Assembly (NCBI GenBank): GCA_015370545.1 | Contig: GCA_015370545.1_3932.1 | Reading direction: 5' to 3' (one strand) | From: a phage | Length of the DNA stretch: 64,000 bases | Notes under the pieces: generated by a model | Database searches by the model: none | What the model was told of the DNA's origin: nothing | What the model saw: the letters and a program-made list of their open reading frames with translations, nothing else | Program-made: the position numbers and the translations under genes | In this document: in pieces, positions 39,412 to 44,688 of the stretch | Layout of the letters: each line of letters opens with the position of its first letter | How positions within the stretch are numbered: position 1 is the first letter of the stretch

Positions 39412-39488
39412 CTCTGTTTAGCTCAGCTTGGTAGAGCGTTCCGTTTGGGGCGGTAAGGCCGGAGGTTCAAGTCCTCCAACAGAGACCA
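39412..39488 (+). tRNA. tRNA-Pro (anticodon TGG)
   Basis: cloverleaf folded by eye; T-arm GGAGGTTCAAGTCCTCC; 3' CCA encoded. Confidence 0.65.
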
Positions 39489-39495
39489 AATTAAT

Positions 39496-39573
39496 GTTCC
39501 AGTAGACAAAATGGTAAAGTCACCACTCTTTCAAAGTGGATATTTGAGGGTTCAAATCCCTTCTGGAACGCCA
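39496..39573 (+). tRNA. tRNA-Glu (anticodon TTC)
   Basis: acceptor GTTCCAG/CTGGAAC, anticodon arm CCACT-CTTTCAA-AGTGG, CCA encoded. Confidence 0.55.
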
Positions 39574-39664
39574 GTTTTGACAGAAGACCAATTACAGCAA
39601 ACTTAATCTTATTCATCTGAAGGTAAATCGGACAAAGAAGAGATTTGGTCTGGTCATTAAGAAT

Positions 39665-39741
39665 TGCGGGTATAGAGAAAGGGCGTCTCACATGTCTCAT
39701 TAGCATGGTATCGGCAGGTTCGACTCCTGCACCCGCCTCCA
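39665..39741 (+). tRNA. tRNA with CAT anticodon (Met or Ile-lysidine)
   Basis: T-arm GCAGGTTCGACTCCTGC, loop CTCATTA; 1-72 mismatch. Confidence 0.5.
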
Positions 39742-39824
39742 AATTTACAGAAGACCGTTTACAGCAATACTTATTAAATTTTTAGCGGAAAAATTGAAAG
39801 ATACGGTCTGGTAATACTAAACAT

Positions 39825-39901
39825 GGTTAGGAAGCACATAAGGTATGTGCGGTCGCCTGTTAAGCGAATGGCACAGGGTTCGAATCCCTGACTAACCGCC
39901 A
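39825..39901 (+). tRNA. tRNA-Asn (anticodon GTT)
   Basis: acceptor GGTTAGG/ACTAACC, loop CTGTTAA, T-arm CAGGGTTCGAATCCCTG. Confidence 0.6.
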
Positions 39902-39970
39902 AATTTAGGAGAGAAGCGATTGCTCACCGATTTGTAAGGTGCAAGTCCTTAGCCTGAATAGAAATTAAAT

Positions 39971-40058
39971 GTGTCGTTATCCCGTAGATGGTAGCGGTGG
40001 GGACTGTAAATCCCTTGTCATTGAGACTCGGTAGGTTCGACTCCTACACGGCACACCA
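39971..40058 (+). tRNA. tRNA-Tyr (anticodon GTA), long variable arm
   Basis: 88 nt; loop CTGTAAA; T-arm GTAGGTTCGACTCCTAC. Confidence 0.55.
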
Positions 40059-40064
40059 AATAAA

Positions 40065-40142
40065 GGTTATGTAGTTTAATCTGGTTAAAATACTCCCCTG
40101 TCACGGGAGATGATGAGGGTTCAAATCCCTTCGTAACCGCCA
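40065..40142 (+). tRNA. tRNA-Asp (anticodon GTC)
   Basis: anticodon arm CTCCC-CTGTCAC-GGGAG; T-arm GAGGGTTCAAATCCCTT. Confidence 0.65.
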
Positions 40143-40596
40143 AATTATAATAAGTATTTCAAAATGATGTTTGAGAGGGCTATTTAGCCCCTCCCTTAAA
40201 GAGTTCTTACGAGTATTCTTTAAAGGAGCAGAAGACCAAATACAGCAAGAATGTATGAAATTTCAAGCCAATTTAATTTTGAAAATTTAAAACTTGGTCT
40301 GGCTCAACAAATTTACAGAAGACCGTTTACAGCAAACTTTAAACAATCTATTTCTCCGGTAAAGAAAAGGCGAAGGTTCGATTCCTTCACTCGGCAGATG
40401 TCGAGTTGGTGTAATGGTAGCACTTAAGATGATAAACAACGGTCTGGTAATTATCTTTGTAGATAAGTTATTAAGCTTACCTGTGAGTATGCGACCACAA
40501 AGGGTGAAAGGGTAAATTCTAGATTTAAACCCAAAAAGGCACATCGCTACAGACCTTAAGCAAGTCTGGGTAGCTTATCTACAAAGATAATTTAAT

Positions 40597-40672
40597 GGAA
40601 GTGTAGCAGAATGGTAATGCGGCAGACTTTTAATCTGACAGGCGATGGGTTCGAATCCCTCCACTTCTACCA
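40597..40672 (+). tRNA. tRNA-Lys (anticodon TTT)
   Basis: anticodon arm GCAGACTTTTAATCTGA; acceptor GGAAGTG/CACTTCT; weak T-stem. Confidence 0.55.
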
Positions 40673-40750
40673 AATTCACCCTTAACTGAGAAACACCTGC
40701 GCGGCTGGAAACACCCACTCAACAGTTTCTCTAACTAGGGTACTTATTAT

Positions 40751-40827
40751 GGTTCAGTCGCAGATAAGGTAATGCAGGGGTTTCATAAGCCCTATGAATG
40801 TGGGTTCGATTCCCATCTGAACCTCCA
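40751..40827 (+). tRNA. tRNA with CAT anticodon (Met or Ile-lysidine)
   Basis: acceptor GGTTCAG/CTGAACC; loop TTCATAA; T-arm GTGGGTTCGATTCCCAT. Confidence 0.5.
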
Positions 40828-40828
40828 A

Positions 40829-40904
40829 GCTGGTATAGTTAAGAAGGTTATAACACTCCCCTGATAAGGGAACGTCGGTGGTTCGATTCCACCTACCAGT
40901 ACCA
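40829..40904 (+). tRNA. tRNA-Ile (anticodon GAT)
   Basis: acceptor GCTGGTA/TACCAGT; loop CTGATAA; T-arm GGTGGTTCGATTCCACC. Confidence 0.6.
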
Positions 40905-42769: not shown

Positions 42770-43327
42770 ATGAGATACTTGAAGTATGCTTCATGGATTT
42801 TCTTAGCTTTGCTAGAGCCATTGGCAGCAATCTTAGCAGTTATCTTAGCACCTTTTGTAGTTCCATTTTACAGTGAGAAGAAAGGACACTTACCTTTTGG
42901 ATTCAGATGGATGGAGACATATGACAACCCGATTGATGGTGATGAAGGTCACGTTAAAAGATGGGCTAAGATTAGAAAGATTGGTAAGCTTGGTGTCTAT
43001 TTGCAGAGAGTTGGATGGCTCTGGAGAAACAAAGCTTATAACTTCTCTTACCATGTGTTAGGAAGAGATGTAAAAGATGTTACTAAGTGGAAAGGTAATA
43101 TCAACGTAAGTTCTGACCCTGAAGATAATCAGACAGGTTATCTCCTAATGTGGAACAGTAATGCTTGGGGATTATTCGCTTTTATCCCATCAATTAAAGT
43201 CTTTGGTAAACAATTCTACTGGAGAATTTATGTTGGATGGAAGCTAAAAAGTGTTGTCCCAGAAGAAAGAGCATTCTCAAGGGAAAGAGTTATGTTGGCA
43301 TTCTTTATTCATCCACTGAGAAAGTAA
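42770..43327 (+). CDS. membrane protein encoded inside the tRNA array
   Basis: 185 aa; N-terminal hydrophobic helix; SD AGAGG upstream. Confidence 0.5.
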   Translation: MRYLKYASWIFLALLEPLAAILAVILAPFVVPFYSEKKGHLPFGFRWMETYDNPIDGDEGHVKRWAKIRKIGKLGVYLQRVGWLWRNKAYNFSYHVLGRDVKDVTKWKGNINVSSDPEDNQTGYLLMWNSNAWGLFAFIPSIKVFGKQFYWRIYVGWKLKSVVPEERAFSRERVMLAFFIHPLRK

Positions 43328-43335
43328 AGATTTAA

Positions 43336-43411
43336 AGGGGATTAGTTTACAAGGTTAAAACCTCGGTCTTTGAAATCGAAGAAGTTGGTTCAATTCCAAC
43401 ATCCCCCGCCA
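43336..43411 (+). tRNA. tRNA-Gln (anticodon TTG)
   Basis: anticodon arm TCGGT-CTTTGAA-ATCGA; T-arm GTTGGTTCAATTCCAAC. Confidence 0.6.
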
Positions 43412-43413
43412 AT

Positions 43414-43492
43414 GCTCCATTACTCCAATTGGCAGAGAGGCCAGACTTAAAATCTGTGTTATGTATCGGTTCGAATCCGATATGGAGTACCA
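43414..43492 (+). tRNA. tRNA with anticodon TAA (Leu-like, class I)
   Basis: acceptor GCTCCAT/ATGGAGT, A73; loop CTTAAAA; T-arm ATCGGTTCGAATCCGAT. Confidence 0.5.
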
Positions 43493-43497
43493 AATTT

Positions 43498-43573
43498 AGC
43501 GGTATAGCATAACTGGCAATGCAGCAGTCTCTGAAGCTGTCTTATTAAGGTTCAAATCCTTATGCCGCTGCCA
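43498..43573 (+). tRNA. tRNA-Gln (anticodon CTG)
   Basis: acceptor AGCGGTA/TGCCGCT; loop CTCTGAA; T-arm TAAGGTTCAAATCCTTA. Confidence 0.55.
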
Positions 43574-43604
43574 CTTCTAAGGATTCTTACGAGAGTCCTT
43601 AAAT

Positions 43605-43680
43605 GTGGCCTTATCATAAATGGTAATGACCCATGCTGTGAACATGGTCTATACGGGTTCAAATCCCGTAGGTCACCCCA
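43605..43680 (+). tRNA. tRNA-His (anticodon GTG)
   Basis: anticodon arm CCATG-CTGTGAA-CATGG; T-arm ACGGGTTCAAATCCCGT. Confidence 0.65.
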
Positions 43681-43685
43681 ATTTA

Positions 43686-43762
43686 TAGTCCAAGTAGCTT
43701 ATATGGTTAAAGCGCGTGTCTGAAAAACATGAGAAGAGGGTTCAAATCCCACTGGACTACCA
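43686..43762 (+). tRNA. tRNA-Phe (anticodon GAA)
   Basis: anticodon arm CGTGT-CTGAAAA-ACATG; T-arm GAGGGTTCAAATCCCAC; acceptor register ambiguous. Confidence 0.5.
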
Positions 43763-43778
43763 ATTTCAAAGGTGCTTA

Positions 43779-44513
43779 ATGAAAGAGATGACAGAACAAG
43801 GTAAGGAGATTTTTAATCTCTTAAAAACTGGTAAAGGGTTTTCTAACCCCCTTATTACTGGTGCAGCAGTTCTCGGTGGAACCGTAGCTGCCTCTACATC
43901 ACTTGTAAGCTCTATTAGTTCTGTATCAGACCCTACAGTAAAGGATAAGCTTGTTGCTGTTGGACTTACAACAGTTCTGCTTAACAGCTTTACCACGAGT
44001 CTGACAAGCACTACATCAACTACCAAAACACTGACAGATTACGGTCAAAAGTCCATTGATGAGTTTTCATCACGTATGCAGGTAGCAAAAGGTTATTCTA
44101 ATGTTATGGGTGCAGCAGGTGAACAAGTTGGCTGTACACCATTTAGTGGTATTATGGGTGTTGCTACAGAGTATGGTCAAAAAGCTATTGATATGATTAA
44201 CAGTGCACTAGACGGTGTTAATGATGTATTAAGTGACTTACAAGACGCTATTGACAAAGGTCTTGATACTATTTCTGATTTAGCTAACCAAGCTGTTAGT
44301 AAGATTAATGAAGGTATCTCGAAGATTACAGCTTATGCAGATGAAGTTGTGCAGATGATTGAAGAAGAAGCTGCCCTTATTGCAGAGTACCTTAAAACGA
44401 ATATCAATGGGTTCTTAGCAGGTATCTTACCAGACTGGTTTGATGATGCTTGTAAAACTGGTGTAATTGACACTATTGCAACACCAGAAATGAAGAGCGC
44501 ATTACAGAAATAA
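43779..44513 (+). CDS. hypothetical Ser/Thr/Ala-rich protein
   Basis: start set at ATG 43779 (MKEMTEQ) after AAGGTG, because the longer 43716 ORF start overlaps the preceding tRNA. Confidence 0.45.
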   Translation: MKEMTEQGKEIFNLLKTGKGFSNPLITGAAVLGGTVAASTSLVSSISSVSDPTVKDKLVAVGLTTVLLNSFTTSLTSTTSTTKTLTDYGQKSIDEFSSRMQVAKGYSNVMGAAGEQVGCTPFSGIMGVATEYGQKAIDMINSALDGVNDVLSDLQDAIDKGLDTISDLANQAVSKINEGISKITAYADEVVQMIEEEAALIAEYLKTNINGFLAGILPDWFDDACKTGVIDTIATPEMKSALQK

Positions 44514-44515
44514 AT

Positions 44516-44608
44516 GGAAGATTAACCCTAAAAGGTAAGGGAGTAGTTTGCTAAACTGCCAGTAGCTGAGAAATCGGTGTACCAGTTCAAGTCTGGTATC
44601 TTCCTCCA
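44516..44608 (+). tRNA. tRNA-Ser (anticodon GCT), long variable arm
   Basis: 93 nt; acceptor GGAAGAT/ATCTTCC; loop TTGCTAA; T-arm ACCAGTTCAAGTCTGGT. Confidence 0.55.
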
Positions 44609-44612
44609 ATTT

Positions 44613-44688
44613 GAATCCGTGACAGAAATGGCTATGTGCCTGTCTGCAAAACAGGTTTATAAGGGTTCGAGCCCCTTCGGATTCTCCA
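44613..44688 (+). tRNA. tRNA-Cys (anticodon GCA)
   Basis: perfect acceptor GAATCCG/CGGATTC; anticodon arm CCTGT-CTGCAAA-ACAGG; CCA encoded. Confidence 0.7.

Follow-up and report, generated by a model that had tools for sequence, protein, structure and literature searches.

By the textbook rule, a leucine transfer RNA (tRNA) carries a long variable arm, as does tRNA-Leu of Escherichia coli (leuQ/Z and others), which is 85–87 nucleotides (nt) long and has a stem-loop variable arm. Short-arm, or type-I, tRNA-Leu is already known from mitochondria and Streptomyces, and an example from a T5-like phage is in use in synthetic biology. Here we describe three tRNA-Leu genes of this type in a 5.3-kb tRNA gene cluster at positions 39412 to 44688 of a 64,000-nt stretch of phage DNA (GenBank assembly GCA_015370545.1, contig GCA_015370545.1_3932.1; hereafter the window, whose numbering is used throughout). 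The tRNA cluster itself is routine and its value lies in a large, overlooked exception to the textbook rule, namely a conserved family of short-arm tRNA-Leu that is common in phages and Actinobacteria. What is new is the extent of this family in both groups together with the uniformity of its identity elements.

Animal mitochondrial tRNA-Leu(UUR) has a short variable loop like those of the window genes, and its identity rests mainly on A73 and A14 (PMC9976931). However, it is floppy, A/U-rich and served by its own leucyl-tRNA synthetase (LeuRS), whereas the elbow of the phage tRNAs is canonical (G18G19, T loop UUCGAAU). Streptomyces coelicolor has a type-I tRNA-Leu(CAA), and according to the genome scan given below its D-arm family is shared with many Actinobacteria. 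A73 is reportedly no identity element in S. coelicolor and the E. coli enzyme (EcLeuRS) does not charge its tRNA (PMC6614811), whereas the phage tRNAs must suit an enterobacterial LeuRS. The tRNA-Leu of the T5-like phage OSYSP is short-armed, has A73, encodes its CCA end and has the D loop AAUUGGCAUA, and one of the window genes, Leu(TAG), resembles it. OSYSP belongs to the Demerecviridae, another phage family than that of the window, and the published experiments concern OSYSP while the window genes are known from their sequence. Finally, the tRNA cluster of phage Felix O1 is the same locus as that of the window, and the window Leu(TAA) gene is 100% identical to a Felix O1 gene annotated as tRNA-Leu. 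In describing the Felix O1 genome, Whichard et al. (2010, PMC3185647) listed 22 tRNAs and argued for codon compensation, and later comparative work on these phages merely counted the tRNAs. In the published descriptions of Felix O1 and Felixounavirus, which count 17–23 tRNAs, the short-arm shape of the tRNA-Leu goes unmentioned, and so do the Y-like RNAs, the Ro60-like gene and the tRNA-Trp-like gene that are described below.

The three tRNA-Leu genes of the window are:
41904–41981, + strand: type-I tRNA-Leu(TAG), 78 nt (ARAGORN; Rfam 38.9 bits)
42483–42560, + strand: type-I tRNA-Leu(CAA), 78 nt (ARAGORN; Rfam 43.6 bits)
43414–43492, + strand: type-I tRNA-Leu(TAA), 79 nt (ARAGORN; Rfam 47.5 bits)

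The ARAGORN cloverleaves give all three stemless variable regions of ∼5–7 nt, where a type-II tRNA has a stem-loop arm of more than 10 nt. All three pass the curated gathering score of the Rfam tRNA model RF00005 (29 bits), in agreement with the cloverleaves, and each has A73 and an encoded CCA end. A preliminary description of the window, based on hand folding, had likewise assigned them short arms and A73, and automated folding neither reassigned any of them to another identity nor uncovered a hidden long arm. That description had, however, called A73 unusual for bacterial tRNA-Leu; A73 is the canonical leucine discriminator, shared with the type-II tRNA-Leu of E. coli, and just the short arm is unusual. 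The two tRNA-Ser (90 and 93 nt) and the tRNA-Tyr (88 nt) of the same cluster retain long arms.

Leu(CAA) has the layout GTTCCAG-TA-TCC-CAATTGGCAGA-GGA-T-GCAAG-CTCAAAC-CTTGT-ACTAGT-GACGG-TTCGAAT-CCGTC-TTGGAAC-A-CCA, with a D stem of three base pairs (bp), the D loop CAAUUGGCAGA and a 6-nt variable loop in which U48 is last. Leu(TAA) has the same D arm and a 7-nt variable loop, again ending in U48. In both genes the D arm combines the 3-bp stem with a C13·A22 mispair and the series A14 A15 U16 U17 G18 G19 C20 A20a, and the final U of the variable loop permits an A15–U48 Levitt pair. The D arm in E. coli tRNA-Leu is the same position for position (3-bp stem, 13·22 mispair, A14 A15 U16 U17 G18 G19 N A20a). 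The phage tRNAs differ from their E. coli counterparts in being 78–79 nt long with a 5–7-nt loop in place of the arm. Leu(TAG) has a variable loop of ∼4–5 nt, an irregular D stem and the D loop AAUUGGUAA, which is related to the family loop; in phage pinkbiff its entire anticodon stem is swapped for a different, perfectly paired one, a compensatory replacement. Leu(TAA) was matched at 99% identity or better in 216 phage records, Felix O1 among them, and had no match in 5,426 complete E. coli genomes. A hybrid tRNA-Leu in Salmonella phage FG1m (L005, 7999–8076) combines the 5′ part of Leu(CAA) with the acceptor 3′ strand of Leu(TAA) and looks like the product of a recombination deletion between the two paralogous short-arm genes, with loss of the genes that lie between them.

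We defined the family by a Leu anticodon on a body with a short variable loop, a description that fits all three window genes. The D arm shared across the family (3-bp stem, C13·A22, loop AAUUGGCAGA), together with A15–U48, is matched exactly in the CAA and TAA genes, which represent the CCAAUUGGCAGAG sub-type, while Leu(TAG) resembles the AAUUGGCAUA sub-type of OSYSP. Short-arm, A73-bearing Leu tRNAs with the same D arm occur across the Ounavirinae (Felixounavirus, Mooglevirus and Kolesnikvirus), and the same short-arm tRNAs are found among the Demerecviridae (the T5-like phage OSYSP and Aeromonas phage AhP_Mru1) and in the Lactobacillus herellevirus LpeD. A Vibrio demerecvirus carries a normal 87-nt tRNA-Leu, hence both types occur in phages, and the fetched parts of one T4-like and one phapecoctavirus tRNA cluster contained no Leu gene. 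The T5-related AhP_Mru1 (L006), besides its three short-arm Leu tRNAs, carries two tRNAs with the stop-codon anticodons CTA and TCA (5900–5974 and 6796–6869) that are annotated as suppressor tRNAs.

The distribution was surveyed further with a pattern scan for CCAATTGGCAGAG followed by a T loop at short-arm distance, the long-arm distance serving as control. Among the viral contigs of IMG/VR at least 120 had the short spacing and one had the long spacing. At the loci fetched, ARAGORN found Leu anticodons on 80 of 82 and 42 of 42 motif-bearing tRNAs, with all six Leu anticodons present. The same pattern was sought in one genome per bacterial species and recovered at least 120 contigs, mostly from Nocardia, Mycobacterium, Gordonia, Rhodococcus and Arthrobacter-like Actinobacteria, with some Planctomycetes and cyanobacteria among the matches listed. 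In that same set of listed matches, 112 of 123 motif tRNAs were tRNA-Leu, mostly UAA and usually lone chromosomal genes. This actinobacterial, planctomycete and cyanobacterial spread exceeds the single Streptomyces case described in the literature that we examined. The actinobacterial short-arm tRNA-Leu genes (L132–L251) are mostly UAA, 75–77 nt long and single-copy on the chromosome, with the D arm CCAAUUGGCAGAGG.

Conservation was measured in an alignment of 148 unique family members. Standard pairs occupy 98.3% of the cloverleaf cells, compared with 40–49% in controls in which the 3′ partner was shifted, and 19 of the 20 cloverleaf pairs are made by 3–6 different pair types. A73 is conserved in 147 members, U8 and A14 in all 148, A15 in 145 and U48 in 147. 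The anticodon is a Leu anticodon in 146, and the variable loop is ∼5 nt (6 nt by the alignment measure) in 137. Covariation is strong, and the near-exclusive Leu anticodons and A73 are what co-selection of body and anticodon for leucine would produce. The type-I tRNA-Leu family is thus real and under selection, its body and anticodon co-varying with leucine.

Whether such tRNAs would be charged in the host can be judged from what EcLeuRS recognizes. The enzyme reads A73 and the tertiary core (A14, A15–U48, G18G19 and A20a) and neither the anticodon nor the long arm; A15–U48, G18G19 and A20a are essential and arm-less variants stay active (PMC9976931, a 2023 review). The full E. coli leucine identity set (A73, A14/U8, A15–U48, G18G19 and A20a) is present in all three window genes. 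Moreover, a passage of a 2026 preprint that cites Nyerges 2023 (PMC13596443) reports that an anticodon-swapped tRNA-Leu(CGA) from OSYSP (MF402939.1) led to TCG being decoded as leucine in E. coli. Both OSYSP Leu genes are 77-nt short-arm tRNAs, so that whichever of them was used the swapped tRNA was presumably of the short-arm type. Several points weigh on the other side. In a 2019 study that describes EcLeuRS as a type-II-only enzyme, a transcript of the S. coelicolor type-I tRNA-Leu(CAA) was not charged by it (PMC6614811), so charging of short-arm tRNAs by EcLeuRS cannot be taken for granted. Leu(TAG) is irregular: one additional nucleotide precedes the D stem, the anticodon stem contains a U·U mismatch, and its Rfam score (38.9 bits) is the lowest of the three. 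We nevertheless infer strongly, from the established identity rules and the OSYSP homologue, that the host LeuRS would leucylate the three phage tRNAs.

The same considerations bear on the idea that the Leu-anticodon class-I tRNAs carry another amino acid or none and act as recoding agents or decoys. Their unusual shape, the in vitro failure of EcLeuRS on one foreign type-I tRNA-Leu (PMC6614811) and the irregularities of Leu(TAG) would all fit such a role. It is nonetheless highly improbable given the near-uniform Leu anticodons (146 of 148) and A73 (147 of 148) of the family, the presence in the window genes of every published E. coli Leu determinant, the in vivo insertion of leucine by the T5-like homologue as that preprint passage reports it (PMC13596443), and phage proteins that look standard-code, with strong Pfam and PHROG matches.

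Codon usage points to what leucylated tRNAs would do. In 40 long open reading frames (ORFs) of the window, TTA accounts for 27%, CTT for 26%, CTA for 13% and CTG for 15% of leucine codons, and AGA for 41% of arginine codons. The corresponding shares in E. coli are ∼13% (TTA), ∼10% (CTT), ∼4% (CTA), ∼50% (CTG) and ∼4% (AGA) (Kazusa table). The TTA, CTT, CTA and AGA shares of the phage are thus well above those of E. coli, as expected from the match to phage codon usage raised in the preliminary description, which supports the view that the UAA, CAA and UAG tRNAs, and the Arg UCU tRNA, act in supply. We propose that the cluster would be transcribed rightward from host-type promoters and the tRNAs then excised by host processing enzymes, whereupon the anticodons UAA, CAA and UAG would serve TTA, TTG and CTN codons. 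These Leu codons are two to three times as frequent in the AT-rich phage as in its host, which suggests that the tRNAs mainly add decoding capacity in the late phase of infection. Our favoured reading, to which we give a probability of roughly 0.85, is accordingly that of a Felix O1-like cluster whose type-I tRNA-Leu, charged by the host LeuRS, supply phage genes rich in TTA, CTA and CTT.

The short arm itself could be explained differently, as an anti-defence trait, with the short-arm Leu tRNAs replacing host type-II tRNA-Leu destroyed by a host nuclease or toxin that recognizes the long arm or the host anticodon loop. The bypass of host tRNA-targeting nucleases, raised in the preliminary description, is a proposal made for phage tRNAs in general. 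It is an accepted idea that phage tRNAs resist tRNA-targeting defences (PMC13596443), human Schlafen 11 cleaves type-II tRNAs (cited in PMC13056530), and the phage copies, exemplified by a Leu(TAA) without a match in the E. coli genomes, would be structurally distinct targets. We consider this explanation unlikely. The defence literature that we examined describes no nuclease of E. coli or Salmonella that acts specifically on tRNA-Leu or on the long arm, and the characterized bacterial Schlafen cuts the anticodon arms of tRNA-Lys and others, phage tRNAs included (PMC13056530). The Ser and Tyr tRNAs of the same phage also retain their long arms, and the chromosomal location of the family in many Actinobacteria points to the short arm as an inherited lineage trait and not as an adaptation made in the window phage. 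In the supply role that we favour, the short arm may, speculatively, make the tRNAs portable between hosts, offering no arm for SerRS or TyrRS to mis-read, and it might also help them to escape host nucleases.

Members of the family are carried by well-studied coliphages, both Felix O1-like and T5-like, although the host LeuRS has been described as long-arm-only. The minimal LeuRS identity set, and the preference of phages for the short form, are therefore directly testable in E. coli. The short-arm family also explains why viral tRNA-Leu made a good chassis for genetic-code swapping.

Taken as a whole, the region represents the tRNA gene cluster from a myophage of the Felix O1 type, for which hundreds of GenBank records already carry annotation. 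The window belongs to a Felixounavirus, with 95–98% identity to many annotated coliphages, and its 5.3-kb region is 94–98% identical to dozens of genomes (KEP3, CL1, C600M2, pinkbiff and others), with at least 80% of it covered in 233 phage records. In annotated records (pinkbiff, CL1, C600M2 and others) the gene order and anticodons match from tRNA-Pro through tRNA-Cys, including three tRNA-Leu. In the whole window ARAGORN found 26 tRNA genes. They all lie on the + strand and span 39412 to 44688, the same limits as were first given for the cluster. Besides the three Leu genes these are, called by ARAGORN and matched by Rfam except where another basis is given:
39412–39488, + strand: tRNA-Pro(TGG)
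39496–39573, + strand: tRNA-Glu(TTC)
39665–39741, + strand: atypical tRNA(CAT), U73 (ARAGORN)
39825–39901, + strand: tRNA-Asn(GTT)
39971–40058, + strand: tRNA-Tyr(GTA), 88 nt, long variable arm kept (ARAGORN cloverleaf)
40065–40142, + strand: tRNA-Asp(GTC)
40597–40672, + strand: tRNA-Lys(TTT)
40751–40827, + strand: tRNA(CAT), second copy, U73
40829–40904, + strand: tRNA-Ile(GAT)
41243–41319, + strand: tRNA-Arg(TCT)
41558–41647, + strand: tRNA-Ser(TGA), 90 nt, long arm, without encoded CCA (ARAGORN cloverleaf)
41989–42064, + strand: tRNA-Lys(CTT)
42071–42146, + strand: tRNA-Ala(TGC)
42153–42227, + strand: tRNA-Gly(TCC)
42235–42310, + strand: tRNA-Thr(TGT)
42407–42481, + strand: tRNA-Val(TAC)
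42675–42750, + strand: tRNA-Arg(ACG)
43336–43411, + strand: tRNA-Gln(TTG)
43498–43573, + strand: tRNA-Gln(CTG)
43605–43680, + strand: tRNA-His(GTG)
43687–43762, + strand: tRNA-Phe(GAA)
44516–44608, + strand: tRNA-Ser(GCT), 93 nt, long arm
44613–44688, + strand: tRNA-Cys(GCA)

RF00005 scores above the gathering score for 24 of the 26; for tRNA-Tyr the best score comes from the related tRNA-Sec model, and tRNA(CAT) 39665–39741 is the sole gene of the 26 without any Rfam match at E≤1. A CCA end is encoded by 25, the exception being tRNA-Ser(TGA). The discriminator bases (for example Gly U73, His C73, Cys U73, Gln G73 and Leu A73) mostly agree with the E. coli rules. The atypical tRNA(CAT) at 39665 has a U1·C72 mismatch, U37 and an extra connector nucleotide, and it is kept in the Mooglevirus phage Mijalis with a compensatory change in the T stem; U73 is common to both CAT-anticodon tRNAs, either of which may be elongator Met, initiator or Ile2. 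The preliminary description had counted about 27 tRNAs, which corresponds to the 26 canonical genes plus one structurally odd tRNA-Trp-like gene, and together these serve all 20 amino acids. All ARAGORN calls agree with the anticodons that it listed; its tRNA-Trp is not called by default and is present instead as the non-canonical gene. Its observation is thereby confirmed and its interpretation is supported as broadly right.

The tRNA-Trp-like gene was recognized by direct reading of the sequence and from compensatory changes:
41462–41544, + strand: non-canonical tRNA-Trp-like gene

Its 5′ half consists of a GUGGGAC acceptor strand, the connector GAUGUUAAGA, a CUC-UAAGGCAU-GAG D arm and CA, and its 3′ half of the anticodon arm ACGGC-CUCCAAA-ACCGU, UUCAA, the T arm AGGGG-UUCAACU-CCUCC and GUCCCAU-G-CCA, so that the anticodon is CCA, the discriminator is G73 and the CCA end is encoded. 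In place of the usual two-nucleotide connector there are ∼10 nt between the acceptor stem and the 3-bp D stem, and a C31·A39 mismatch is present as in the annotated tRNA-Trp of Erwinia phage phiEa104. The gene is missed at default thresholds, being called by ARAGORN only at -ps80, as ‘Pyl’, and scoring 23 bits (E 0.39) with Rfam. In both pinkbiff and Mijalis its first acceptor pair is A1–U72, and in Mijalis the D stem CUC/GAG becomes CAC/GUG and a T-stem G–C becomes U–A. A distant metagenomic phage contig (L258, ∼10480–10565) has a Trp-like gene with new complementary acceptor, D and anticodon stems. Judged by this sequence comparison, 41462–41544 is a conserved, structurally odd tRNA-Trp-like gene missed by standard finders. 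Other calls made by ARAGORN under relaxed settings (a ‘permuted tmRNA’, that is, a permuted transfer-messenger RNA, and antisense Gln) were rejected as assemblies of neighbouring tRNAs or weak matches, the ‘Pyl’ call marking the Trp-like gene. Sub-threshold Rfam matches (Plastid-ycf2, MIR473, mir-4659, sX4 and tmRNA) were likewise set aside as antisense tRNAs or chance.

The tRNA-Trp-like gene and a Ro60/Y-like RNA module are the more novel items of the locus. Bacterial YrlA RNAs are arranged as T-arm, acceptor-like stem and D-arm (Chen 2014, PMC4201824), and among phages Ro60/Yrl pairs have been described in mycobacteriophages, CcrColossus, Bacillus phage G and Thermus phage phiLo (PMC12135203). 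In the literature on Felix O1-like phages we found no mention of Ro60/Y-RNA pairs. The window elements of this module are:
37831–39246, + strand: Ro60-like (TROVE + vWA) gene (Pfam, PHROG, AlphaFold2 (AF2) model, Foldseek)
39578–39657, + strand: Y-RNA-like element 1 (CAGAAGACCnnTTACAGCAA ... GGTCTGG) (motif search, shared fold)
39745–39815, + strand: Y-RNA-like element 2 (motif search, shared fold)
40226–40306, + strand: Y-RNA-like element 3 (motif search, shared fold)
40313–40451, + strand: Y-RNA-like element 4, with YrlA-type tRNA mimic (RNAalifold, compensatory changes)

The Ro60-like ORF encodes 471 amino acids and ends 166 nt before the first tRNA. Its product matches Pfam DUF2828 and DUF7788 and PHROG 850 (‘RNA-binding protein’). 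Searching the PDB by sequence gave no match, so structure prediction was needed. In the AF2 model (pLDDT 87.6, pTM 0.88) the protein is predicted to have the Ro60 fold, a HEAT-repeat ring with a vWA domain; its full-length Foldseek matches include Xenopus laevis Ro60 (2i91_A, E 1.7e-8, TM 0.66/0.60), Thermus phage phiLo Ro60 and Deinococcus radiodurans Rsr, and Ro60 structures rank first. A DUF5681 gene immediately precedes the Ro60-like gene in the window (37378–37749) and again in the distant contig L258 (5504–5908), which suggests that DUF5681 and Ro60-like form a conserved gene pair. The Ro60-like gene also adjoins a tRNA cluster in three distant contigs. One of these three contigs has two more T-arm/hairpin/D-arm elements with an ACAGCAA motif, TTTACAGCAA and TATACAGCAA. 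In a 143-kb phage contig with a Ro60-like gene (L256), an IS605 OrfB/Cas12f-like TnpB gene (11393–12652) lies just downstream of the tRNA cluster.

The Y-RNA-like elements, all four of them unannotated, were delimited by the 20-nt motif CAGAAGACCnnTTACAGCAA, of which there are four copies among the first tRNAs where chance would give 0.05. A GGTCTGG lies downstream of each copy and pairs with it in a common closing structure of an outer 4-bp helix, an AGA bulge and a 7–8-bp helix, and the outer helix has compensatory variants (UGAC/GUCA, UUAC/GUAA and GAGC/GCUC). Element 4 contains in addition a T-arm, a 7-bp acceptor-like hairpin and a D-arm within the bulged closing stem. This structure is predicted by the RNAalifold consensus of seven Ounavirinae phages, with compensatory changes at four pairs, and the acceptor-like hairpin occurs in three mutually compensatory versions. 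Element 4 is present, unannotated, in ∼246 phage records. It has a sub-threshold Rfam tRNA match of 24.7 bits at 40332–40396, and no YrlA or other Y-RNA family, nor any other non-tRNA Rfam family, matched it at E≤1.

As in the described Ro60/YrlA modules (PMC4201824; phiLo, PMC12135203), a gene for a Ro60 fold here stands beside small RNAs closed by a bulged stem of their 5′ and 3′ ends. Unlike known Ro60, the window protein falls in DUF2828/DUF7788 and not in TROVE. The bulge motif is AGAAG with TTACAGCAA, compared with CGAA and GNCGAAN0-1G in known Y RNAs, and, in contrast to the known modules, the Y-like RNAs are interleaved with real tRNA genes. Element 4 thus fits the YrlA layout but not the curated motif or model, and we label it Y-RNA-like and not a member of a curated family. 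It was also considered as a circularly permuted tRNA gene and rejected, as it has no anticodon arm, its closing stem is the same as in the three tRNA-free copies and the YrlA layout fits. The repeated 20-mer, with its -35-like TTGACA or TTTACA start, was similarly considered as a promoter, but a promoter scan flags one copy, weakly, and the compensatory changes of the outer helix favour an RNA stem; a dual role as promoter and RNA stem may exist. With the Ro60-like gene and the Y-like RNAs, Ro60–Y RNA biology gains a phage model in E. coli/Salmonella.

A wider view would treat short-arm tRNA-Leu as a virus-adapted ‘universal donor’ lineage which, relying on A73 and the elbow alone, might be chargeable by the LeuRS of many hosts and invisible to SerRS and TyrRS, and possibly to arm- or host-specific nucleases. 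In the Ounavirinae it would belong to one module, whose other parts would be the Ro60-like protein, the odd tRNA-Trp and four Y-like RNAs, among them a tRNA mimic; this module would both supply tRNAs and police them during infection. We regard this proposal as a doubtful one.

The cluster also contains candidate transcription signals and two further ORFs, of which the promoters and the terminator are proposed from consensus matches:
39265–39293: second candidate sigma-70-like promoter upstream of the first tRNA
39356–39385, + strand: candidate sigma-70-like promoter, TTGACA-18-TAAAGT with TG, 10 of 12 matches
40920–40948, + strand: strongest internal candidate sigma-70-like promoter, TTGACA-17-TATAGT, 11 of 12 matches
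42770–43327, + strand: ORF within the cluster, 185 amino acids, DUF7338 (Pfam)
43716–44513, + strand: ORF within the cluster, DUF7217, putative membrane protein, likely ATG start at 43779 (Pfam, annotation)
44851–44868, + strand: terminator-like hairpin and T run, downstream of the cluster

The best promoter candidate of the region, at 40920, opens a 340-nt tRNA-free stretch (40905–41242) that gives weak, sub-threshold Rfam matches to tmRNA and permuted tmRNA (15–21 bits). Several spacers between the tRNAs fold far better than shuffled controls and each is closed by a long terminal stem:
40449–40596: folded spacer, z-score −6.4
40673–40750: folded spacer, z-score −4.4
41775–41903: folded spacer, z-score −3.8
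42311–42406: folded spacer, z-score −3.3

These folded spacers might be sites of RNase III-type processing, or else additional stable small RNAs.

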